Part shown: one piece after another, positions 6,771 to 21,433 of the stretch
Layout of the letters: each line of letters begins with the position of its first letter
Numbering within the stretch: the stretch's first letter is position 1
DNA from: a virus
Direction: 5' to 3' (one strand)
Virus record (IMG/VR): IMGVR_UViG_3300035034_001226
Span: 1-22,720 of that record
Length of the DNA: 22,720 nucleotides
Made by a program: the position numbers and the translations under genes
The notes under the pieces: model-generated
The model's input: only the letters and a program-made list of their open reading frames with translations
The model's database searches: none
Told to the model about the DNA's origin: nothing

Positions 6771-7009
6771 CGTAAATTCCTAAAGCTTGCTTTAATATTA
6801 TTAACTTCTCTTTTAAGAGAATCTATTGAAACCTTAGCAGTTTTTAACTGTTTTTGTAATAGCCTATTATCTCTATACAAAACATCCAAAACATTTTTAT
6901 GCTTCTTAAGTTGCTTTTCATAATCATCAAGAACTCCCTTTTGATGAAGTTCTTGATCTTTAAGTTGCTTTTTTAGCCATTCGAGTTCTTTTTTAACATC
7001 AGGTTCCAT
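6767..7009 (-). CDS. Small coiled-coil protein
   Basis: 80-aa heptad-rich ORF; ATGA overlap with the i-spanin gene. Confidence 0.7.
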   Translation of the reverse strand: MEPDVKKELEWLKKQLKDQELHQKGVLDDYEKQLKKHKNVLDVLYRDNRLLQKQLKTAKVSIDSLKREVNNIKASFRNLR

Positions 7010-7584
7010 GCCTTATTTATCCTTTTATAAGTGGTAAGTGCGTTTCTTGCTAACTCATTTGACTTTTTACCCTTTTTAATTCCTAACTTAGATAATACAG
7101 AATCTTGATCAAATTTATTAATTGTGCCCATTGATAATGAAAATGTGTCAAAATTTCGAATTCCAAATCTAATACCCGATAATTCATATCGCTTAAATAA
7201 ATCCCTAAGAAATGGAAGGTGTAGGGTGGTGATATTATTACCCATGCAATACAATGGTTTTTTAATATCCATATTATTCATTATGAATTCCATTACATCA
7301 ACCAATGCATCTTCTTCAATTTCACCATGTTCCTCTAAGTATTCCTTAGATAGACCATGAATTTTTTCAGCACCAGCATCCCATTTAGATACACCATTCC
7401 ATTTGATTTCAACATACATCTCATCAATGACTTCATATGTTTCAACATCTGCAACAATTAAAGCAATAGATACGGGTTGGTAACCTTCTGCAATACTAAA
7501 ATCATTTTCACTGTAGGTAGATTTTCCATTAATACCACTAGTGTGACAGTGTACTACTAGTACTTTATTTAATTCAATTCCCAT
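6973..7584 (-). CDS. DnaQ/DEDD-fold exonuclease homolog with non-canonical (His) active site
   Basis: DnaQ-like pattern: VLVVHCHTSG (ExoI, normally DxETTG), SIALIV, AEKIHGLSKEYLEEHG, GNN..LHLPFL (ExoII, normally GHN..FD..FL), FDT. Confidence 0.75.
   Translation of the reverse strand: MGIELNKVLVVHCHTSGINGKSTYSENDFSIAEGYQPVSIALIVADVETYEVIDEMYVEIKWNGVSKWDAGAEKIHGLSKEYLEEHGEIEEDALVDVMEFIMNNMDIKKPLYCMGNNITTLHLPFLRDLFKRYELSGIRFGIRNFDTFSLSMGTINKFDQDSVLSKLGIKKGKKSNELARNALTTYKRINKAWNLMLKKNSNG
7014..7021 (-). promoter_or_regulatory. Possible late promoter (GATAAATA) for the spanin/head operon
   Basis: 7/8 match located inside the end of the exonuclease gene, 4 nt before ATG 7009, at the switch from DNA-metabolism genes to late genes. 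Confidence 0.35.
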
Positions 7585-9827: not shown

Positions 9828-10265
9828 ATGAGTAAAAAATTCCCATTAGTAGTAGAACAACACCCAGATGATTATGAGGGTTATAAATTTATAACCCTAA
9901 TACGATTCAATGATGCCAGTTCTTTGAATATTGTGGATAATGTATCCAAGAAATATATTCATGCATATGTTATTGATTTATGTGATCCTGAAGGTTATGA
10001 TGAAGATAAGTTGATACAGACTGCATATGAATGGTACAATACAAACAGTACTAGGTTCCCACTATCAATTGAACTATCTAGACGCAATATGACTAATGAA
10101 GTGCAGGGTATTCTACGTGCATACCCTATTGATTATGTTACTAGGGTTATAGGTCCACTTCCACAATTTGATATGGAAGGTCCAATAAAAGTTAGAAAGA
10201 GAAAGAGAAAGGATATTCCATCTGGTGTTGAAATAATTAACAATTCAACTACAATAAAGTTTTAA
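9828..10265 (+). CDS. Hypothetical late protein
   Basis: 145-aa ORF with SD and promoter; basic C-terminal patch KVRKRKRK; overlaps the convergent ORF by 17 nt. Confidence 0.75.
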   Translation: MSKKFPLVVEQHPDDYEGYKFITLIRFNDASSLNIVDNVSKKYIHAYVIDLCDPEGYDEDKLIQTAYEWYNTNSTRFPLSIELSRRNMTNEVQGILRAYPIDYVTRVIGPLPQFDMEGPIKVRKRKRKDIPSGVEIINNSTTIKF

Positions 10266-10608
10266 TATACTTATAATTCTCGATAGTTGTCCATTCACCT
10301 TTATCATTTTGAAATCTTCCGATTAATTCCTGACCACGATCTGTTAGTTCATTTGAATCATCTATAAGGTTTTGTGAACGTAATATATCACTACCAGTAT
10401 TAGTCAGGGTAGCTGTACGGGTACTATCATTAACTCTAATGAATCCATTCTGCTCCAATTTCTTACGTGCGGTTACCGCATTCCTAGCACCTGTAGCTAC
10501 ACTATAGGCCAATTCTGGTGAAGATGATACGTGCATTAATACAATTATAGCCTTATCGGTATTATCTAATTCTAAACGCTCGGTTAGTATTTCTTTAAGT
10601 GATTTCAT
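10249..10608 (-). CDS. Winged-helix-like protein with pro-peptide-like N-terminus
   Basis: Track ORF 10249..10623; likely start MKSLKEILTE at 10608. L..NGFI...ATLTNTG and NLI...ELTDRG are wHTH wing signatures. Confidence 0.55.
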   Translation of the reverse strand: MKSLKEILTERLELDNTDKAIIVLMHVSSSPELAYSVATGARNAVTARKKLEQNGFIRVNDSTRTATLTNTGSDILRSQNLIDDSNELTDRGQELIGRFQNDKGEWTTIENYKYIKTLL

Positions 10609-11173
10609 ATTTACCCATTTCAATTAAGTGAAGTTGAAGAACTATTAATATGGCGTATGGGATAGCATGAGCTTTTCTCATATCTTCTGGCATCCGCTTT
10701 GTGTATAACTCTACCCTATATTTATCTGGGTCTTCCATATATTTATACAATAATGGACGTTTGTTGGGACGAATTAATGCAAACACATCTGCAAGCTCCA
10801 ATATTGAACGTGGTTTAACTATAGAAATTATATCAAAATGATTACCCAAATGGAATAAATTCTTAACAACATTTTCATCATTTAGTAAATCCCAATCAGG
10901 TTCAATATCTTGCAATTCCCTCATTTGTTCCTTAGATTCGAATTTATCAAGAAGATGTACAGGTAAAAAATCAATCTTATAATATCCCATATCTTCAGTT
11001 TTCTTATATGGTATTGCTGATAATCCAGTAACATTATCCACTGGTATATCTTGAAAATAATATCCAACAATATGTTTCATCAACTTTCCATCGGTTACCA
11101 TAGATGCTGAAACTAGATTATTAAAAACCGTATCAATCTCTAAGTTTGGGGGTATGTCTATATCAATGTCCAT
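10595..11173 (-). CDS. dnaE: DNA polymerase III alpha (DnaE)-like protein, C-terminal catalytic fragment
   Basis: MDIDID (= PDxDxD), KHIVGYY (= HAGGVVI), GYYKIDFL (= GLVKFDFL), KPRSILELADVFALIRP (= LQPDCFEDMIALVALFRP), KAHAIPYA (= KSHSAAYA), all in DnaE order. Confidence 0.85.
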   Translation of the reverse strand: MDIDIDIPPNLEIDTVFNNLVSASMVTDGKLMKHIVGYYFQDIPVDNVTGLSAIPYKKTEDMGYYKIDFLPVHLLDKFESKEQMRELQDIEPDWDLLNDENVVKNLFHLGNHFDIISIVKPRSILELADVFALIRPNKRPLLYKYMEDPDKYRVELYTKRMPEDMRKAHAIPYAILIVLQLHLIEMGKYEIT

Positions 11174-11895
11174 TAAAAGTTATCCAAAACATACTCTATA
11201 TCCGAAATGTTACTTGCTTCTTTGATTTCCCTTTGGGCTTTAATATACTCGCTTTCTATTTCTACCCATGCTGCTATAGTATTGCGTTGCTTAGTCAATA
11301 CACTATTTGCAATATTATCTATGGGTTTATCTAATTCCGTTGCTAACACTTCAAGGAGTGGGAAGCTAGTTCCGTTATCAGCCAAATAATCAACCGCTTG
11401 ATTCAATCTCTCATTATATATGTACATTATTTCTTGTGGGGGTGATACTTCACTTATTCTGTTACGATACATATGAGTTAAAATTACTGTTCCTATTTCT
11501 AAAGCTTCAGAAAAATCTCGTGCATGGTCTAAGGTTGTCTCGGAGTCACTATCAATTACTTCTTTAAAACTAGTTTCATGACGAATTAACTCTCTAATTC
11601 TATTGTCAATATCCAGTGTGGATATTATCCCACCGTCACGTAAAATAAGCTTTCTGTCACGATTATATTCATTAATTGGCTTATTTTCATTAAGAAAATT
11701 TAATTTAACAACTGCATCTAATGGTGCATCTAATAGATCATCATTAACATTACGTAGATTCTCACGCCATATAACCCATTCCTGAACACATTGCTCAGTA
11801 AGCCTAGTATCAGACAACTGCGTCCAATCAGTACGAGATAGCATTGTATCACGCCTACTGTTTATATCTCTCCATCCAACCTTTTCATTATCCAT
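11173..11895 (-). CDS. Tail fibre assembly chaperone-like protein (two domains)
   Basis: RDTMLSRTDWTQLSD...WVIWRENLRNV matches the phage tail assembly chaperone motif (R..LL..TDWTQL.D...W..YR..LRD). The C-terminal half (QAVDYL...PLLEVLA....IDNIANSVL) resembles a second fibre-chaperone family. AGGTGA SD. Confidence 0.65.
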   Translation of the reverse strand: MDNEKVGWRDINSRRDTMLSRTDWTQLSDTRLTEQCVQEWVIWRENLRNVNDDLLDAPLDAVVKLNFLNENKPINEYNRDRKLILRDGGIISTLDIDNRIRELIRHETSFKEVIDSDSETTLDHARDFSEALEIGTVILTHMYRNRISEVSPPQEIMYIYNERLNQAVDYLADNGTSFPLLEVLATELDKPIDNIANSVLTKQRNTIAAWVEIESEYIKAQREIKEASNISDIEYVLDNF

Positions 11896-11906
11896 TTATA
11901 TCACCT

Positions 11907-12581
11907 TTATAAGTCTAGTGCCCTAATATATGATTTCATTTGTTTCAAATCTTCAGGGTTATCCTTGAAATATTTATCCCATTTCTTCGGATTTAATAAT
12001 TCACTTGCTAGTACTTGCTGTTCACGAGTCATACCTGTCCTCAAATATCCCATAAATTTCTTTGAAGTTAGTAATAGACATGGCATTAATTTTCTAGCTT
12101 GAATAATGCGTATTGTTGATGATGGTTCTATATGACGAAAAACTTCACCTGTCTCACAATCAAAAATTTTAGATAGCTCGAAAATAGTATCAACTGTAAC
12201 TTCACATTGCTCACGTAATGTCATTATGTCAAATATGTTAGTTATGTAATGATCATATACAATGTGTTGACACCAATCCTTTGGATGGATATCCATATCT
12301 ACCATTACTTCCATATACCTTTTTAGATTAGGTATAGCCATCTTTCTAGAGTATTCAGCAAAACGCATCATAGGTTTAAAATGCCTAGAGTTTAAGAAAT
12401 CATCCATACTATCATTCTGATGACGCTTTAACGATGTCCACTCTTGATAATTAAAAAAAGCACTTTTCCCATTATTTGTTTGTAGTAACTTTGCACGTTT
12501 CATTTGTTCACAATTATGCCGTTTCATGTAGGCAGGGCTTGTAAAATTTTTTAAACAATAGTTACACTGTAATAGGCTCAT
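11907..12581 (-). CDS. Zinc-finger protein (C2HC) of unknown function
   Basis: N-terminal CNYC...F......RHNC; ATGA overlap with the clamp-loader subunit gene. Confidence 0.7.
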   Translation of the reverse strand: MSLLQCNYCLKNFTSPAYMKRHNCEQMKRAKLLQTNNGKSAFFNYQEWTSLKRHQNDSMDDFLNSRHFKPMMRFAEYSRKMAIPNLKRYMEVMVDMDIHPKDWCQHIVYDHYITNIFDIMTLREQCEVTVDTIFELSKIFDCETGEVFRHIEPSSTIRIIQARKLMPCLLLTSKKFMGYLRTGMTREQQVLASELLNPKKWDKYFKDNPEDLKQMKSYIRALDL

Positions 12582-13036
12582 TTAAATTCTTTTTTTATTT
12601 TCGCAATAGTCTCTTTTTGTTCACCTAGATTATTAGACAAAGAAATAATATCATCACAATCTAATATACCAATATATTCACGTGCTGTCTGAGTGCTACA
12701 ATTATACGTGCGTCTAATTATATCACATGATGTGGCATATTTCTTACTTGCTGTTTTCTTTTTTATATAATTATATTTCTTAGGTTTACCATCACTGGAA
12801 ACACATGCAAGTTTATATAATAACCCTTTATGTTTATCCGATAATTCAAATACATTCATATTTAGAAATGCATTAAGTTGCAGTAGTTGTAATTCTGAGT
12901 TACAACCACCCATCCACAACATAACCACGTATGGATATAACGTCTTTTGTTCATCAGGTGATAATGACTCATAATATTCTATATTAAAACCATCAACGTT
13001 CTTCAGAACTTCAAAAATATCAACTTTATTATTCAT
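12578..13036 (-). CDS. Clamp loader A subunit (T4 gp62-like)
   Basis: YPYVVMLWM...LN...HKGLLY...KKYNYIKK...IIRRTYNCSTQTAREYIGIL parallels gp62; size and position downstream of the gp44-like gene agree. Confidence 0.65.
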   Translation of the reverse strand: MNNKVDIFEVLKNVDGFNIEYYESLSPDEQKTLYPYVVMLWMGGCNSELQLLQLNAFLNMNVFELSDKHKGLLYKLACVSSDGKPKKYNYIKKKTASKKYATSCDIIRRTYNCSTQTAREYIGILDCDDIISLSNNLGEQKETIAKIKKEFK

Positions 13037-13346
13037 TAATTGTTAAATAACATCCACAAAATTTACATTGTACCCTACCTTCCCATAATACTAACTGGTC
13101 TTTTGGATGAATACAGTCCTTAATCATTTCCTCACGTAATTCATGTACCTTGTCCATGATGGGTTGTTTCTTCATGGAGATTGCAAGCATTTCATCTTCT
13201 AAAGGTTGAAGTTCTGCAATTAACTTAACCATTTTATCCCGCTTTCTGCGCCATGATAGTTTATGGTTCTTATCAGCTACCCTTGAAACTTTATCAAAAA
13301 TCTCATTTTCACTAGCGTATTGTTTGGATTCTAATTCATCTGACAT
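13029..13346 (-). CDS. Coiled-coil protein with C-terminal Zn-ribbon (CxH...CxxC)
   Basis: 105 aa; CIHP...VQCKFCG; TAATG coupling to the gp44-like gene. Confidence 0.7.
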   Translation of the reverse strand: MSDELESKQYASENEIFDKVSRVADKNHKLSWRRKRDKMVKLIAELQPLEDEMLAISMKKQPIMDKVHELREEMIKDCIHPKDQLVLWEGRVQCKFCGCYLTINE

Positions 13347-14281
13347 TATTTTACTACTCCTGATAGTTTAATCATACATGCTGTGAAATTTATCTCAGGG
13401 TCAGCAACCATCCCGTGGAATCTTAAATGTTCAGCTATGATTAGAATGCCCTTTTTCCAATTCATTGCGTCATCAAACCCCTCAACTTCATCTAAATAAT
13501 CGTATAGAAATGTATATATTTCTTCCCAATCTGATCCCTCAATTCCTGATACAATATTTGCTCTGACTTCCATCCATCTACCTTTATTCAATTCCTCAAT
13601 AATTGATACCATTAATGCATCATTATCAGAGACTTCTTCAAGGCTTTTAAGATGACCATCACGTGAATTTATTTCTAGGTTCTGTAGAAGTTTACGCATG
13701 TCTGGATAAGCATCATCAACATATTCCATTAATACTTCAGCAGAACTAACTTCAACACCTTCTGCCTTAAGTATCTTATACGAATGAACTGCCATATCCT
13801 TTTTATTGAAATCTTTAAATTCAAGAATTGTACATCTTGACTTCAATTCAGGGATTATCTTATGTGGTTTATTACAAGTTAGGATAAATCTAACATTATC
13901 GGAATGCTTTTCCATCATTGCTCGTAATGCACCTTGAGCATTCTGTGTAAGAAAGTCAGCTTCATCTAGAAATATGATTCTTAAACCACCACCAAGGGCC
14001 ATATTAGATGCAAATGACTTAATTGTAGTTCTAATGGATTCAACAGAATTATCATCAGATGCGTTTTGTATTTTAAAATCACAATTTTCAACACCTAATT
14101 CATTCTTAAGAATATGGGCTAATGATGTTTTCCCTGTACCCCTATGACCCTGTAATAATAGGTGGGGTATAGATTTTTCTGAAATGAACTTCTCGATTAA
14201 TTCCTTTTGGGATTCATTCTGAAATACGTATTCTTTTATTGTGGAAGGTCGATGAGATTCAACCCATAATTTTTTTGGCAT
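13346..14281 (-). CDS. Clamp loader AAA+ subunit (T4 gp44 / RFC small subunit)
   Basis: WVESHRP (RFC box II), Walker A GHRGTGKT, NASD, Walker B LDEAD, AQGALR, FILTCN, SRC arginine finger, DMRK. Confidence 0.95.
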   Translation of the reverse strand: MPKKLWVESHRPSTIKEYVFQNESQKELIEKFISEKSIPHLLLQGHRGTGKTSLAHILKNELGVENCDFKIQNASDDNSVESIRTTIKSFASNMALGGGLRIIFLDEADFLTQNAQGALRAMMEKHSDNVRFILTCNKPHKIIPELKSRCTILEFKDFNKKDMAVHSYKILKAEGVEVSSAEVLMEYVDDAYPDMRKLLQNLEINSRDGHLKSLEEVSDNDALMVSIIEELNKGRWMEVRANIVSGIEGSDWEEIYTFLYDYLDEVEGFDDAMNWKKGILIIAEHLRFHGMVADPEINFTACMIKLSGVVK

Positions 14282-14307
14282 TTATTAGAGTCCTTTATTA
14301 TCTGGAC

Positions 14308-14336
14308 ATTATATACCATAGTGGGAATTAAATCAA
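14308..14336 (-). promoter_or_regulatory. Sigma70-type (early/middle) promoter
   Basis: TTGATT (14336-14331), 17-bp spacer, TATAAT (14313-14308), then AAGGA SD before the clamp-loader ATG. Confidence 0.75.
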
Positions 14337-15373
14337 GACTTTTTTGGAGTTCGCATATCGTCTAATATTGAACTTTTAGATTTGGATTGAGATGCCATTA
14401 ACGATTCTACACTATCACTAATTTTTCCCATAACGAGTAACATATCATCTTTATCTTTAGATGATTCCTGTTTATTTTCTTCCACCATGTTCTCAAAATA
14501 CTCTTTCATGGTCGATAACTCTTCATTAATATCAGTTTGTTGCTCTGGTTCTGATTGTACCATAGTTTCTCCGATAGAATCAACATCTTCTTCAATATCT
14601 ACTTTCTTATTTAAATATTTGTTCTTATAACCATTCTTCATAAAGGTATGGTTGGCACACATTAGCAATACAATTGCCATTGGGTCAAATACAAAAATGA
14701 ATGCTAGTATTAGATATCTAGCAGCTTCTTCAGTTCTATCATTACCTTCACCGAATAATACATCAGCAACATACTTAATTGGACCCAACTCTATTTCAAT
14801 TGCCTTAAGCTGCACCTGCAATTCAAGTTTTTCATTCTCTAATGTGTTTATGGTACTCTGTGAACTTTCAATAATTGAGTTAAGTTCTTCTCTCTGGGGT
14901 TTCTGACGCTCTCTCACGGCTCTTGCACCGTTCTCTTCATCTGATATCTTGGCATACTCTATAAGGGTGTTGACAGTGGTATCAAGCTGACTGATGAGTT
15001 GCCTAGCATCATCTATCTTGTATTGTTCAGTTGCGATTCTCTGCTCAAGGCGATTTATATTTAATTCATTATTTGCAACTGGGGTTTTTTGTTCAATATG
15101 TGCTTTAGATAATGTCCCAAAAATTCCAGAACTTGTTAAGAGTAATGCTACTAGAATTAATGGTAGACATATGTACTTTAATATAGTTTCATCATTCCAT
15201 GAACGATAAGCCCAAGCAATGGCTACAAGCTTACCTAATTCAATTACTATGCCCATAGCTAATCCGTAAACCACATTACCAGCAAAAAACGCCATGATAC
15301 CAGTTACTGCAAACCATGCAGCAACTGAAGCCATAGCTAAAGATGTAAGTAAAACTAGTATTCCGAATAACAT
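14333..15373 (-). CDS. Multi-pass membrane protein with long coiled coil
   Basis: Three N-terminal hydrophobic helices (with IELGKL), a coiled coil of about 110 aa, a fourth TM with FVFDPMAI, and an acidic tail. Confidence 0.8.
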   Translation of the reverse strand: MLFGILVLLTSLAMASVAAWFAVTGIMAFFAGNVVYGLAMGIVIELGKLVAIAWAYRSWNDETILKYICLPLILVALLLTSSGIFGTLSKAHIEQKTPVANNELNINRLEQRIATEQYKIDDARQLISQLDTTVNTLIEYAKISDEENGARAVRERQKPQREELNSIIESSQSTINTLENEKLELQVQLKAIEIELGPIKYVADVLFGEGNDRTEEAARYLILAFIFVFDPMAIVLLMCANHTFMKNGYKNKYLNKKVDIEEDVDSIGETMVQSEPEQQTDINEELSTMKEYFENMVEENKQESSKDKDDMLLVMGKISDSVESLMASQSKSKSSILDDMRTPKKS

Positions 15374-15378
15374 ATTGT

Positions 15379-15386
15379 TATTTATA
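15379..15386 (-). promoter_or_regulatory. T4-type late promoter TATAAATA (candidate leaderless start)
   Basis: Perfect consensus occupying the 13-nt gap, 5 nt before ATG 15373. Confidence 0.55.
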
Positions 15387-15713
15387 TTATGCTAGTTCTT
15401 TAGGTAGGTTTTTGGGATCATCCCAAGTTGCTAAAATTGCAGACTGCTGAGTGACCCAATATACTTTATTTCGCATTTGTATACTGGGTGTCCACTGTAA
15501 TGCTTCAATCAATACAACATCATCAGGTTCAAAATCCTCAACGTCAGGCCCAGTGTTTATAATCATACCCCATCTGTTATTCTTTGCCTGTTTAGAACTA
15601 TCAGCAACTAATAACACACCAGCCGCTGTCTTTTCATTAAATTTACCATTTGTAACATCTTCTATAAATTTAAAAACGATTTGATCTTTAATTGCTTGTA
15701 GTTCGACTGTCAT
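15387..15713 (-). CDS. groES: Co-chaperonin GroES/Cpn10-like (functional analogue of T4 gp31)
   Basis: LQAIKDQIVF (= LxPLxDRVxV), mobile loop EKTAAGVLL, GMIINTGPD, PDDVVL, ILA; 108 aa. Confidence 0.85.
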   Translation of the reverse strand: MTVELQAIKDQIVFKFIEDVTNGKFNEKTAAGVLLVADSSKQAKNNRWGMIINTGPDVEDFEPDDVVLIEALQWTPSIQMRNKVYWVTQQSAILATWDDPKNLPKELA

Positions 15714-15715
15714 AA

Positions 15716-16108
15716 TTATCCTTTATTTTTTACTATTCTTTTTTTGCCTTGTCTGGCCTCTTTGGTCACTTCGGGTGTTTCATCAGGTGTTTCTTCAACA
15801 CCTTCATCAACATTAGTTACAACCTTATCTTCCGACAATTCAGCAGAATTAACTTTTTCATTTTCAGCATCCTTTCGGTTTTGCTTACTTTTACGCATTT
15901 TTTCACGAGCATCTGCTACATTTTTATTTTGTTCAGCTTCAAGATCAGCAACACTTCTACGTGGATTTCTCCTACGCTTTATATCAATGTATTGTTCTCG
16001 ATTCTCAACACCATTTGTCTTTCTACGGCGTTCCATACTAGCCTTGACCTCCAAAAGATCAAAATCTACTATTTCACCGCGAATACTTCTTGTTGTTTTC
16101 TTTGACAT
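15716..16108 (-). CDS. Hypothetical late protein
   Basis: 130 aa; GAGGA SD; N-terminal RSIRGEIVDFDLL; basic then acidic low-complexity tail. Confidence 0.75.
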   Translation of the reverse strand: MSKKTTRSIRGEIVDFDLLEVKASMERRRKTNGVENREQYIDIKRRRNPRRSVADLEAEQNKNVADAREKMRKSKQNRKDAENEKVNSAELSEDKVVTNVDEGVEETPDETPEVTKEARQGKKRIVKNKG

Positions 16109-16135
16109 TTATAATCCTCATCTAGATATGATTAG

Positions 16136-16143
16136 TATTTATC
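16136..16143 (-). promoter_or_regulatory. Near-consensus late promoter GATAAATA
   Basis: Intergenic, 27 nt upstream of ATG 16108; would drive the hypothetical + groES pair. Confidence 0.55.
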
Positions 16144-16151
16144 ATTCCCCC

Positions 16152-16718
16152 TTAGCGGAAAAATTCACCTATATCTAGTTCATATTTAACACTATCAACT
16201 TGGTGTAAGCCTATTAAATATAATATATAACTTGCACATGCACTACCTCTGCCTGTACCCCAAACTATATTCTTATCTCGAAAGGTTTCAACAACGTAAA
16301 TCATCGTCCGTAACATATCTAATTGACCCCTTTCGGTCCACACTCTAAGTTCCATTTTCATTCTAAAAAATCTAACTTCTAAATCTTTCCCTTTAAGTGA
16401 ATATCGCTTTATTTCACTTAACATACACTTGTTAACATACTCTACAACATCAAGTTCCTTATATTTTTCAGGAATAACCCATTCAGTTCTTATATCTTTT
16501 ATGTCTTTTTTAAAACCAATACTATGTTTTGGGAAATTTTCATTGTATTTCTGAACTTCTTCAGATTCGTATAACTCTTTTGATAAATGCATATTATAAA
16601 TTTTCTTACACTTTAATATTTCATCGTATAAAAAATCTATATCAACAACAGAATCACCATCTTTAAATAATATTCTATCATTCAATTTCACATAATCATC
16701 TTCAGTTATATTGGCCAT
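16152..16718 (-). CDS. dnaE: DNA polymerase III alpha (DnaE)-like protein, N-terminal fragment
   Basis: R..MEL...IVWGTGRGSACASYILYLIGLHQVDSVKYEL...F matches DnaE RL..EL...[33 protein letters not shown]. ATG 16718 (MANITE) is preferred to the track start at 16736. Confidence 0.85.
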   Translation of the reverse strand: MANITEDDYVKLNDRILFKDGDSVVDIDFLYDEILKCKKIYNMHLSKELYESEEVQKYNENFPKHSIGFKKDIKDIRTEWVIPEKYKELDVVEYVNKCMLSEIKRYSLKGKDLEVRFFRMKMELRVWTERGQLDMLRTMIYVVETFRDKNIVWGTGRGSACASYILYLIGLHQVDSVKYELDIGEFFR

Positions 16719-16724
16719 TTTACC

Positions 16725-16753
16725 ATTATAACACAATTTACTTATTAATTAAA
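16725..16753 (-). promoter_or_regulatory. Extended -10 sigma70-type promoter
   Basis: TGTGTTATAAT (TATAAT at 16730-16725) with a weak -35 TTTAAT at 17-bp spacing; ATG follows 6 nt after the -10. Confidence 0.6.
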
Positions 16754-17239: not shown

Positions 17240-17734
17240 TTATATCAAATCACCAATCAAGATATTCTTCAAATACTTGTTATAATTATCAGTTGGTGAC
17301 ATACATATCCAAGCATCAGGTCCAGCATGATGACATAGCATTGTATGTTTATTTAGCACTGGAAATTTCACTTGAGCTTCTGCATGATAGTCAAAAACCT
17401 TAATTGGTCCGGGAGTAACTATTCCACGTTCATGTTTAAACAGTACTGCTGTATGCCTAGTCCTAGCTAAATCACTAACTTCAACAATATCTACTTGTGC
17501 AGTCTCTTCAGAATATACTAGTATGTTCCAGTTAGTTGGTGCTTCAATAGGATAATCATTCACTGTGAATTCTAAGGTTCTAGTGGTCTGCTCTTCAAAC
17601 ATTTCTAGTGGTTGAAGGGTAAAGTCTATCTCATTTTGTAGTTCTAATTGCAACACCCAAAAGAATTTAGTTTTTATTGGTGTTTCAATATTGTCAATAA
17701 GTATAGGTGATGAATTTTCGTTTGAAATTATCAT
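17240..17734 (-). CDS. Hypothetical protein coupled to uvsW
   Basis: 164 aa; TAATG overlap with the helicase gene; GGAG SD; beta-rich composition. Confidence 0.8.
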   Translation of the reverse strand: MIISNENSSPILIDNIETPIKTKFFWVLQLELQNEIDFTLQPLEMFEEQTTRTLEFTVNDYPIEAPTNWNILVYSEETAQVDIVEVSDLARTRHTAVLFKHERGIVTPGPIKVFDYHAEAQVKFPVLNKHTMLCHHAGPDAWICMSPTDNYNKYLKNILIGDLI

Positions 17735-19224
17735 TAAGATATATTCTCCATTATTTTTTTATATTCTGTCTTTTCATGTTTATAATCATATTTCTTTTCT
17801 CTATAATGCTTGGCACGAGCATTAGAGTGGCGCTTGCAAAACTTAAAGTCCGAATATACATCGTAAACATTAACAGAGGTCTTATCATGTGCTTTTCGTA
17901 AACCTCTACCTATTGATTGTATCACTTGAACAAAACTCTTACCAGCATCAACTAAAAATAAATTAAATACACGTTTAATATTAAGACCAGTTGACCCTAG
18001 TGAAAATGTCGTTATTGCTGTAATATCATCATGATCATTAAATGAATTGTAAATTTCTTTTCTTATTTTCTTACTATCGTTACCATAAAAGAATATAGCA
18101 TTAGGTATTAACTTTGCTAAGGCTCTACCAAAATCGACGTTTGGAACTAACACCAAAGTATTTTTCTTCGGAGTTGATATTAATTTTGCGAGAAATGCTA
18201 ATCGTATTTTATCTTTCTGTAAGCTTTTTTTCTCAGCTTGGTAGTCACTAAAGAAACTTGCCTTAAATTGTGGGTATGTTACAGGCTCATGATCCTCATC
18301 GTCTTCTTCTCTATCCTTACAAAACTGTTCATACTCCGACGTTACATCCTCAACAAGCTCATATCTATATAAATTAAGTTTAGCAAGCCAACCACTTTTA
18401 ATAAGTTCCCAAGCTTCAACTTTCTCAACTACTTCACCTAATGTTATTCGAACTGCCATACGGTCAATTTCTTCTTCAGGTATGGTGCCTGTCAATCCTA
18501 TACGAACTAAACAGTTAGAACCATAGTCATTCAATATGGTTTGTAGTACCTGACCAGTAACACCATGACATTCATCTACAATAACAACTTGGTAATTAGA
18601 AATAATTCCTTTATTATTTTGTAATGATTGCCACGTTGTAACCAAATGATTATGATTAATATCCTTATGACCACCACCATATTGTCCAACATCAACACCA
18701 TATTCTTCTAACTCAGCATGTGTTTGACTAACTAGGTCAGATGATGGCACAATGATAATACACTTAAATGATTTAAATTCCTCATATATGTGACATAATG
18801 TCGCAGTCATAAGCGTTTTTCCAGCACCAGTGCCACCCTCAAATATGCCAGAACCTTCCAATAATTTATTAATACCACGAACCTGATGTTCCCCAAGAAT
18901 AACATCAAAACCACGATCCTTTAGATAATGATCATTTATAGATGGTATTGTTAAATCAACATTAACCCTATCATCAACCACTTCAATTTTATATTTAAGT
19001 CTAGTAAGTTCCTTAACAATTGTTGGTGCCAATTTTAAATAAGTGTTACCTGTCATAGAAAAGAAACGTATTTTACCATCCCAATGGCCCAACTTATATT
19101 TTATTTGATGTCTAAATCCTTTCGCATATATTGCAAACATGTTGGATAAATGCTGTGCGTCATCTTCCACTAATCCATGAACTTGAATATTAACTTCGTC
19201 TATTATGTGTATAGTTGCTTTCAT
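17734..19224 (-). CDS. uvsW: UvsW-like SF2 DNA helicase
   Basis: WDGKIRFF N-terminal motif, Walker A TGAGKT, TTWQSL, DECH, GLTGT, STGLNI, QSIGRGLR. Confidence 0.93.
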   Translation of the reverse strand: MKATIHIIDEVNIQVHGLVEDDAQHLSNMFAIYAKGFRHQIKYKLGHWDGKIRFFSMTGNTYLKLAPTIVKELTRLKYKIEVVDDRVNVDLTIPSINDHYLKDRGFDVILGEHQVRGINKLLEGSGIFEGGTGAGKTLMTATLCHIYEEFKSFKCIIIVPSSDLVSQTHAELEEYGVDVGQYGGGHKDINHNHLVTTWQSLQNNKGIISNYQVVIVDECHGVTGQVLQTILNDYGSNCLVRIGLTGTIPEEEIDRMAVRITLGEVVEKVEAWELIKSGWLAKLNLYRYELVEDVTSEYEQFCKDREEDDEDHEPVTYPQFKASFFSDYQAEKKSLQKDKIRLAFLAKLISTPKKNTLVLVPNVDFGRALAKLIPNAIFFYGNDSKKIRKEIYNSFNDHDDITAITTFSLGSTGLNIKRVFNLFLVDAGKSFVQVIQSIGRGLRKAHDKTSVNVYDVYSDFKFCKRHSNARAKHYREKKYDYKHEKTEYKKIMENIS

Positions 19225-20311: not shown

Positions 20312-21433
20312 TTAACTTTCCTCTACTTCTTCTACCTTCTTCCTACCTCGCCTAGACTTAGGTTTATCTTCTTTCTTTTCTTCAGATGCTTCAACTTCAA
20401 CATATTCACTAAGATCAGCATTAACAGTAGTTTCCTTGGAGTCTACCTTTTTAATTTCATCTAAAAGCATATTCATGAAGTCTAAATCACTTTCGGCCTT
20501 ACCTTGTTGGAATTTTGGACCTTCGAATGAAACTGGTGTATACCAGCCCTTATTTTTGTCTATAATTCCAAACTCAGTAGCGATTTCAATCAAGCCTGAA
20601 AATTCATCCACACCATTATCAAATGGAATTTCAATTTTAACCGTTTGCTTTTCTCGGCCTATTCGATTTTTATATGCAGTCGCTTTCAATGTAAAACCTT
20701 GATGGACTTTTTTACCACTAATTTCCTTTTTAAATTGAAGCTTCTCAAACATAATAATTTGCGAAAATGCAAATTGTAATGATGGGGTAAATACCCAAGG
20801 ATTTTCTAAAGCCTTAATTGGGTCTTGTTCTTTATAAGGCTGCTTAGTACATATGATAGATATTGGTAACCCATTTACAGAGTGAACCCAAGTCTTTAAC
20901 ATACCTTTTAATTGTTTAGCTTGCTGTCCCTGATCGCCACCGATATCACCTTTGGTATCGAGTCGTTTCTGTTCAGTTTCTGTCAACAGCATATCAAGAG
21001 AGTCAACAATAATAACTCCACGAATTTCCTCACCACTAGCTTTATAATCTTTAAGAATATCATTCACTACTGAGGTAGTTTGGCTAATACCATCTACCCC
21101 AACATATTGATAGTTATCACTATCAACATCTACACCACAATTAGCCATGAAATCACTATCAAGTGATGTTTCCGAATCAATGACGAATGCAAATCCACCA
21201 TCTCGTATTACTGCTGCTGCTACACTTGCTGCTACTAAACTTTTACCTGAACTTGAATGTCCAGTTAATGCAGTCAATCTGCCTTGTGGAATTGCACCAT
21301 TAAAATCACTTGTCATTAATTTGTTTAATGCATAGTTACCACAATGTAGAAAATAACTGGGTGGTAATAATTCTGTATTTACACCTTCGTTTTTTTCTAA
21401 TTTCTTTTTATATTTTTCCATGAAGGATACCAT
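20312..21433 (-). CDS. uvsX: UvsX / RecA-like recombinase
   Basis: GNYALN, IPQGR, Walker A GHSSSGKS, IDSE, Walker B IIVDSL, GDQGQQAK, KNR, IPFDNGVD, GWY. Confidence 0.93.
   Translation of the reverse strand: MVSFMEKYKKKLEKNEGVNTELLPPSYFLHCGNYALNKLMTSDFNGAIPQGRLTALTGHSSSGKSLVAASVAAAVIRDGGFAFVIDSETSLDSDFMANCGVDVDSDNYQYVGVDGISQTTSVVNDILKDYKASGEEIRGVIIVDSLDMLLTETEQKRLDTKGDIGGDQGQQAKQLKGMLKTWVHSVNGLPISIICTKQPYKEQDPIKALENPWVFTPSLQFAFSQIIMFEKLQFKKEISGKKVHQGFTLKATAYKNRIGREKQTVKIEIPFDNGVDEFSGLIEIATEFGIIDKNKGWYTPVSFEGPKFQQGKAESDLDFMNMLLDEIKKVDSKETTVNADLSEYVEVEASEEKKEDKPKSRRGRKKVEEVEES

Follow-up and report, generated by a model that had tools for sequence, protein, structure and literature searches.

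Two small genes in the first 22.7 kb of a 105-kb viral contig from IMG/VR (IMGVR_UViG_3300035034_001226, estimated to be 30% complete) very probably encode the two subunits of a minimal split DNA polymerase III (Pol III) alpha, as carried by T4-like group 2.2 jumbo phages. The whole stretch analyzed here, 22,720 nucleotides, is referred to as the window, and its source is an uncultured T4-like giant phage. The two genes, termed the N half and the C half after the parts of the polymerase to which they correspond (Table 1), lie 5 kb apart with the C half downstream and eight open reading frames (ORFs) between them. An initial annotation, made from the sequence alone, had described them as two minus-strand ORFs, DnaE-like halves broken at the active site and separated by eight genes; both ORFs, their homology with DnaE and the number of intervening ORFs were confirmed. 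The family is already known, since exactly this enzyme was described from sequence by Iyer, Anantharaman, Krishnan, Burroughs, and Aravind (2021, Viruses 13:63, PMC7824862), and the window contains a further member. The two genes share homology with DnaE, a conserved break point, purifying selection and the absence of other DnaE domains, and their products are predicted to form a heterodimer.

Homology of the two proteins with DnaE

The N half matches the Pfam family PF07733 (DNA_pol3_alpha) with an E-value of 7.6e-9 and 36 bits (cut-off 23.9 bits), and the PHROGs family phrog_11127, labeled 'DNA polymerase', with an E-value of 2e-40 over 168 of 171 profile positions. A profile of 22 N-half sequences matches residues 288-392 of E. 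coli DnaE in the PDB (E 8e-4), and hhalign aligns residues 90-188 of the protein with residues 287-393 of E. coli DnaE (probability 95.6%, E 1.3e-8). When its AlphaFold model, with a predicted local distance difference test (pLDDT) value of 84, was compared with 48,161 PDB chains, the top seven matches were all DnaE or PolC, with Z-scores of up to 8.2 and covering residues ~79-186. The initial portion of the palm is formed by residues ~79-188, which are equivalent to E. coli DnaE ~279-393 and contain the GxGRGS triphosphate-binding motif, whose residues G154, G156, R157, G158, and S159 are invariant in the 22-sequence alignment; R157-G158-S159 correspond to R362-G363-S364 of E. coli. The protein ends in GTGRGS...LDIGEFFR followed by the stop codon (last letters VWGTGRGSACASYILYLIGLHQVDSVKYELDIGEFFR), in which EFFR is equivalent to E. 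coli F391-N393 and R188 falls at about N393. An alternative TTG start codon is present at 16736, six codons upstream of the start used here.

The C half begins with MDIDIDI and matches phrog_11778, also labeled 'DNA polymerase', with an E-value of 7e-59. It has no Pfam match itself; 19 of 22 homologs match PF17657 (DNA_pol3_finger), with a best E-value of 1.2e-6. A profile search against PDB sequences gave no match at E <= 1, and homology with DnaE therefore rests on the Pfam matches of the relatives, the fold and hhalign, the last of which gave an E-value of 0.002 and a probability of only 13.6% against the single E. coli DnaE sequence. The AlphaFold model of the C half (pLDDT 92) had Pol III alpha (DnaE) chains as all of its top 13 PDB matches in Foldseek, and VIA-align superposed it on E. 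coli DnaE 401-787 (2hnh) with a Z-score of 10.2 and a root-mean-square deviation of 3.4 over 185 aligned residues, values similar to those obtained with Taq DnaE and PolC. Comparison of each ORF with DnaE and PolC, which had been proposed as a check, thus supports homology for both by hhalign, Pfam (for the C half through its relatives), PHROGs, and fold.

Residues were mapped by indexing the motifs of the E. coli K-12 dnaE gene by position (GRGS at 361-364, PDFDVDF at 400-406, KFDFLG at 553-558, FRPGP at 638-642, and NKSHSAAYA at 757-765). M1 of the C half corresponds to P400, D2 to D401, D4 to D403, D6 to D405, K66 to K553, and D68 to D555. Read from this mapping, the catalytic aspartates of the C half are D2, D4, and D68, the first being residue 2 of the protein; the earlier assignment to D4, D6, and D68 was two residues off in its numbering of the D401 and D403 equivalents. 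In the fingers, R135-P136 correspond to E. coli R639-P640, with R135-P136-x-K138 standing for the FRPGP motif, and K167, H169, and Y173 correspond to K758, H760, and Y764, such that the KxHxxxY motif is kept. D2, D4, D6, K66, D68, R135, P136, K138, H169, and Y173 are invariant among the 22 aligned sequences. As its motifs indicate, the C half keeps those parts of the fingers that are turned toward the incoming nucleotide and template, and the initial description of the pair as palm-only was too narrow: the protein reaches E. coli ~787 and retains equivalents of K553, RPxK, and K758/H760/Y764.

The spacing of these residues reveals how much of the polymerase is gone. D401 and D555 are 154 residues apart in E. 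coli and their equivalents are 66 apart here, which indicates that the thumb is missing, as had been suspected. The distance from R639 to H760 is 34 residues here versus 121 in E. coli, which indicates that a large part of the fingers is missing as well; the fingers are reduced to about 120 residues, and the protein ends near E. coli ~787. With 185 residues aligned across a span of 387, about 200 of the residues in E. coli 401-787 lack an equivalent here.

No PHP, HhH, or OB domain was found by Pfam in either half, PF07733 being the only match, and no clamp-binding or exonuclease module was found in either half or elsewhere in complete relatives; the initial annotation, too, had recognized no PHP, HhH, OB, or clamp-binding region in the two proteins. 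The complete genomes of phages XacN1 and GAP32 gave no PHP match, and no HHH_6 match was obtained in XacN1, GAP32, the 141-kb Alishewanella phage Slicko01 (OQ508956.1), or the window's own contig with its 30% completeness. A PF17657 fingers match over the cut-off was detected only inside the C-half gene of XacN1; weaker matches fall inside other C-half genes, except one in GAP32 (E 0.016, below the cut-off). The possibility that the missing Pol III domains are encoded elsewhere in the genome therefore finds no support in complete relatives.

Conservation of the break point and selection

In E. coli numbering the break falls between N393 and P400, immediately ahead of the catalytic strand; the loop residues 394-399 (about six) have no counterpart in either half. 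The N half stops at a palm helix and the C half resumes with the strand that follows, which leaves no space for an intein and bears out the initial statement that the halves lack one. All 22 aligned C halves begin with MDIDID, and all 22 aligned N halves end in EF[FL]x with at most one residue more. In each of 62 related IMG/VR loci the C half is a reading frame of its own, with an in-frame stop 0-28 codons upstream of M or V (GTG) followed by DIDID. The N half was found within 10 kb in 30 of these loci, always upstream and on the same strand.

The same arrangement of two separate genes extends to isolated phages. With tblastn, 113 phage records were found to carry the N half and 96 the C half. 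Nearly all are jumbo myoviruses (Xoo-sp13, XacN1, CM1/RAS14, RsoM2USA, Atu_ph07, PA5oct-like, RaK2-like, GAP32, and 121Q), and the counts of the two halves per host genus agree for the main genera. About 96 phage records, like the aligned metagenomic proteins and the 62 loci, have the break at one and the same residue. The two genes are separated by 15 kb in XacN1, 34 kb in GAP32, and 182 kb in Atu_ph07. Identity with the proteins of Xoo-sp13, XacN1, and CM1/RAS14 is 42-46% for the N half of the window and 52-58% for its C half. A megablast search of the region against phage records found nothing, which means that there is no close cultured relative among them. Both halves are also encoded by Slicko01, about 11 kb apart and with an 11-residue leader ahead of FDVDID in the C half, implying that the family is not confined to genomes larger than 200 kb. 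In a metagenomic protein collection, 669 relatives of the C half (105-336 residues) and 81 relatives of the N half were identified, and lengths are constant at about 190 residues across hundreds of homologs. A search for fused relatives of 337-2000 residues found none, which counts as weak evidence.

The ratio of nonsynonymous to synonymous substitution rates (dN/dS) has a median of 0.065 for the C half (Nei-Gojobori method, 13 pairs with dS < 2.5) and is about 0.12-0.15 for the N half, the latter from two usable pairs with near-saturated dS. Judged from these ratios, both genes are under purifying selection and are not decaying. The initial annotation had named relaxed selection or variable break points among homologs as signs of decay; the homolog survey found a fixed break point and low dN/dS instead. 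Split-intein DnaE proteins are known in cyanobacteria, and the small size and separation of the two pieces might suggest either remnants of an intact DnaE in decay or halves that are joined by protein trans-splicing. Such an origin is very improbable, because the break point is invariant with constant lengths of about 190 residues in hundreds of homologs, dN/dS is ~0.07, and the catalytic residues are invariant, while trans-splicing would be at odds with the lack of any sequence for IntN or IntC and of a nucleophile (C, S, or T) after the junction.

Predicted assembly of the two chains

Complex prediction for the pair gave a score of 0.91 in three runs, whereas the best of three controls reached 0.01; in a calibration of the tool, 58 of 80 solved complexes and 2 of 110 mismatched pairs scored that high. 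At least 95% of the contacts agreed among the runs, and the pLDDT of the partners was at least 91. In the predicted complex, N-half strand 152-154 pairs with C-half residues 5-7, and one beta-sheet and one active site are rebuilt from both chains, so that a single palm re-forms. The GRGS loop, which is disordered in the N-half monomer model, lies over the DID strand in this complex. Conserved residues are enriched at the predicted interface in both chains (odds ratios 3.1 and 2.4, p ~0.006 each), with active-site residues contributing to the enrichment. The two proteins probably form a heterodimer without a covalent link, as the initial annotation had proposed, the prediction as such showing likeness and not binding.

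Residues 1-78 of the N half form a confidently folded extra alpha/beta domain, of which the initial annotation made no mention and which has no counterpart in the DnaE alignments. Searches with the whole N-half model detected no match for this domain in the PDB or the ESM Atlas. Its conserved residues L12, R15, L17, D20, and G21 are all within the predicted interface, opposite C-half residues that are invariant (F40, Q41, and P55) or nearly so (A53 and I54), and its position in the model suggests that it may serve as a docking domain.

Proposed activity and role beside a family B polymerase

If the two chains assemble as predicted, the N-half protein would supply the first palm helices and strand together with the GRGS loop, which would grip the incoming nucleotide by its triphosphate. 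The C-half protein would contribute the strand with the metal-binding aspartates D2 and D4, the third aspartate D68, and the preceding lysine K66, as well as shortened fingers carrying RPxK and KxHxxxY, motifs that in DnaE and PolC contact the incoming deoxynucleoside triphosphate (dNTP) and the template. The last N-half strand would pair with the first C-half strand into a single Pol-beta-type palm sheet with no covalent link, and the family-specific N-terminal domain of the N half would clasp the C half. The product would most likely be a small template-directed DNA polymerase that has low processivity and lacks both a thumb and proofreading, and its role beside the family B polymerase (PolB) replicase would probably lie in repair, recombination-dependent synthesis, or primer extension.

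The Pol-beta nucleotidyltransferase superfamily also includes enzymes with tailing, RNA or primer synthesis, or nucleotide-signal chemistry. It is conceivable that the heterodimer is a nucleotidyltransferase with such non-canonical chemistry (template-independent tailing, RNA/primer synthesis, or production of a nucleotide signal), as an enzyme without the thumb and most of the fingers would hold a duplex less firmly and the family keeps the extra domain at residues 1-78 of the N half. This is unlikely, given that the fingers elements that contact dNTP and template in solved DnaE/PolC ternary complexes are invariant (RPxK; K/R167, H169, and Y173) and that the genes lie within a replication/recombination module with UvsX, UvsW, and the clamp loader. 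Template-independent tailing and nucleotide-signal synthesis, both of which the initial annotation had entertained, appear less likely than it implied in view of these retained elements.

PolB was found in XacN1, GAP32, and Slicko01. Since complete relatives carry PolB and no PHP or HhH domain, the split Pol III is probably an accessory polymerase and not the main replicase, in line with the initial view of the pair as an unlikely replicase. The opposite assignment would make the split Pol III the replicative polymerase, or obligatory for one strand or for extending RNA primers before hand-off, a part played by DnaE ahead of PolC in Bacillus subtilis; conservation across the family next to clamp-loader genes, strong purifying selection, and the possible cooperation with PolB on one strand suggested by Iyer et al. 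(PMC7824862) would all fit. We consider it improbable, since no clamp-binding, OB, HhH, or exonuclease module was found in either protein or elsewhere in complete relatives, XacN1, GAP32, and Slicko01 have a full-length PolB, and the missing thumb would speak against processive synthesis. As a separate observation, the PolB match of Slicko01 (OQ508956.1, 3529-5033) extends over two adjacent open frames of 578 and 322 residues, and the family B polymerase of this phage may also be split or interrupted.

Several points weigh against the reading of the two genes as an accessory, DNA-templated split polymerase. PolB was not found in the window's own 105-kb contig, which at 30% completeness says little, and the presence of a second polymerase in this phage is suggested by analogy with its relatives. 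With the thumb and about two thirds of the fingers gone, the substrate may have changed, and DNA-templated synthesis is proposed only from retained motifs. Literature searches aimed at the family found no biochemical or genetic work on any member. One of the two search patterns behind the survey of the 62 loci was MDIDID, so that this survey favors the canonical start, a bias of which the protein search and tblastn are free. Part of the complex score may stem from intact DnaE structures that the prediction model has learned, given that the pair consists of two pieces of a single solved fold, and the alignments given to the prediction were not paired by genome.

A more specific and rather speculative proposal, to which we give limited credence, is that residues 1-78 of the N half are a purpose-built docking module that replaces the covalent link and perhaps a thumb or PHP contact. 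The pair would then be an obligate two-chain family C polymerase with its active site across a subunit interface, whose assembly could be regulated and whose chemistry might be unlike that of any characterized DnaE (e.g., RNA-primer extension or repair synthesis beside PolB).

Gene neighborhood

The window has a GC content of ~33% and carries nearly all of its genes on the minus strand. Both polymerase halves are surrounded by a T4-like replication/recombination module comprising UvsX, UvsW, gp44, and gp62 (Table 1). The intervening genes had been taken as unrelated, an assumption that does not hold, as both clamp-loader subunits are among them. XacN1, GAP32, and the Alishewanella phage share the arrangement with the gp44-type gene, which lies upstream of the C half in 35 of the 62 related loci, and a gp62-like gene is present in 40 of them. 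These clamp-loader genes are conserved context, not parts of the enzyme. The Cpn10/GroES-like protein is probably an analogue of the T4 co-chaperonin gp31.

Table 1. Coordinates of the two polymerase halves and neighboring features in the window.
Feature	Position	Strand	Length (residues)	Evidence	Context
N half of minimal Pol III alpha	16152-16718	-	188	PF07733, phrog_11127, hhalign, PDB fold comparison	
C half of minimal Pol III alpha	10595-11173	-	192	phrog_11778, PF17657 in homologs, AlphaFold (AF2) fold	
UvsX/RecA	20312-21433				replication/recombination module
UvsW-type helicase	17734-19224				replication/recombination module
Cpn10/GroES-like protein	15387-15713	-		E 1.8e-4, barely over Pfam cut-off	between N half and clamp loader
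gp44/RFC-like clamp-loader large subunit	13346-14281	-		PF00004, PF13177, PF21328 (Gp44_lid)	between halves
gp62-like clamp-loader small subunit	12578-13036	-		phrog_225 E 3.8e-5, phrog_11758 E 2e-22	
Zinc-finger protein	11907-12581	-	224	phrog_11058; N-terminal C2HC zinc finger, then ~200-residue body	
Gene directly before the C half	11173-11895	-	240	N-terminus matches tail-fibre assembly chaperone family PF16778, E 3.7e-6	
ORF overlapping the C-half 3' end	10249-10623	-	124	weak winged-helix matches	
ORF farther downstream	6973-7584	-	203	no Pfam match at E <= 0.01	

The most constant neighbor of the C half is the zinc-finger protein, which is encoded upstream and on the same strand in 53 of the 62 related viral contigs. 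The zinc-finger residues C6, C9, H22, and C24 are invariant, and beyond the finger neither the PDB nor Pfam gives a match. A sliding clamp was considered for this gene and rejected, as its product is a C2HC zinc-finger protein with no clamp match. The stop codon of the 240-residue gene overlaps the start codon of the C half (TAATG), and this overlap suggests that the two are probably translationally coupled; a counterpart is found directly upstream of the C half in 23 of the 62 loci.

Downstream of the C half, the 124-residue ORF shares 29 nucleotides with the 3' end of the C-half gene and has a counterpart directly downstream of the C half in 30 of the 62 loci, and the 203-residue ORF has one downstream in 17. 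The T4 late promoter motif TATAAATA is not enriched in the window (8 matches versus 5.3 expected) and marks neither polymerase half, so that it permits no statement on the timing of expression.

Comparison with known systems

Both halves have been recorded before. PHROGs holds them as the 'DNA polymerase' families phrog_11127 and phrog_11778, RefSeq lists 'DNA polymerase' genes in XacN1, Atu_ph07, RaK2, GAP32, 121Q, and PA5oct, and the CBB genome paper had already remarked on a truncated Pol III alpha. The initial statement that DnaE-like fragments are annotated in some jumbo myoviruses is borne out by these phage records and by Iyer et al. (2021). The 'split DNA polymerase' of the MIJ3 paper was considered as the same enzyme and rejected, being a PolB with an intein.

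Iyer et al. (PMC7824862) described a minimal Pol III alpha that is split into separate proteins with distantly located genes and accompanied by a family B polymerase, suggested possible cooperation in the synthesis of one strand or in repair, and proposed the split enzyme as a model of the ancestral form. The pair in the window shows the same two proteins of about 190 residues (an N-terminal one for NTP binding and a C-terminal one for Mg and template binding) from separated genes and no other Pol III domain; PolB accompanies them in the relatives XacN1, GAP32, and Slicko01, and none was found in the window's own 30% complete contig. There is no essential difference, the window being from an uncultured, GC-poor (33%) phage with halves only 5 kb apart. 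The present analysis adds where exactly the break lies, that the first catalytic aspartate is residue 2, that an extra domain sits at the predicted interface, that the N half precedes the C half in a fixed gene order near the clamp loader, and that the family occurs in a non-jumbo phage. Among family C cores, the pair would be the smallest and the only one whose active site is shared by two polypeptides without an intein, and, if active, it would define the minimum for Pol III-type catalysis. It also bears on the origin of C-family polymerases through the ancestral-form model of Iyer et al. (PMC7824862), and it would give a large, widespread clade of T4-like giant phages a second polymerase, one without proofreading.

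Compared with bacterial DnaE and PolC (2HNH, 3E0D, and 3F2B), the two halves keep the Pol-beta-type palm, GRGS, DxD, and the third aspartate as well as the RPxx and KSHxxxY elements, with structural Z-scores of 10.2 (C half) and 8.2 (N half). The differences lie in size and composition: about 380 residues in two chains here versus 1160 in one, without the PHP, thumb, distal fingers, HhH/beta-binding, OB, and tau-binding domains, and with an added domain of 78 residues in the N half. The split DnaE of cyanobacteria (Synechocystis and Nostoc) is likewise made from two distant genes; there the fingers are interrupted and protein trans-splicing restores the chain, whereas the break in the window lies in the palm just before the catalytic strand, with no intein sequence.

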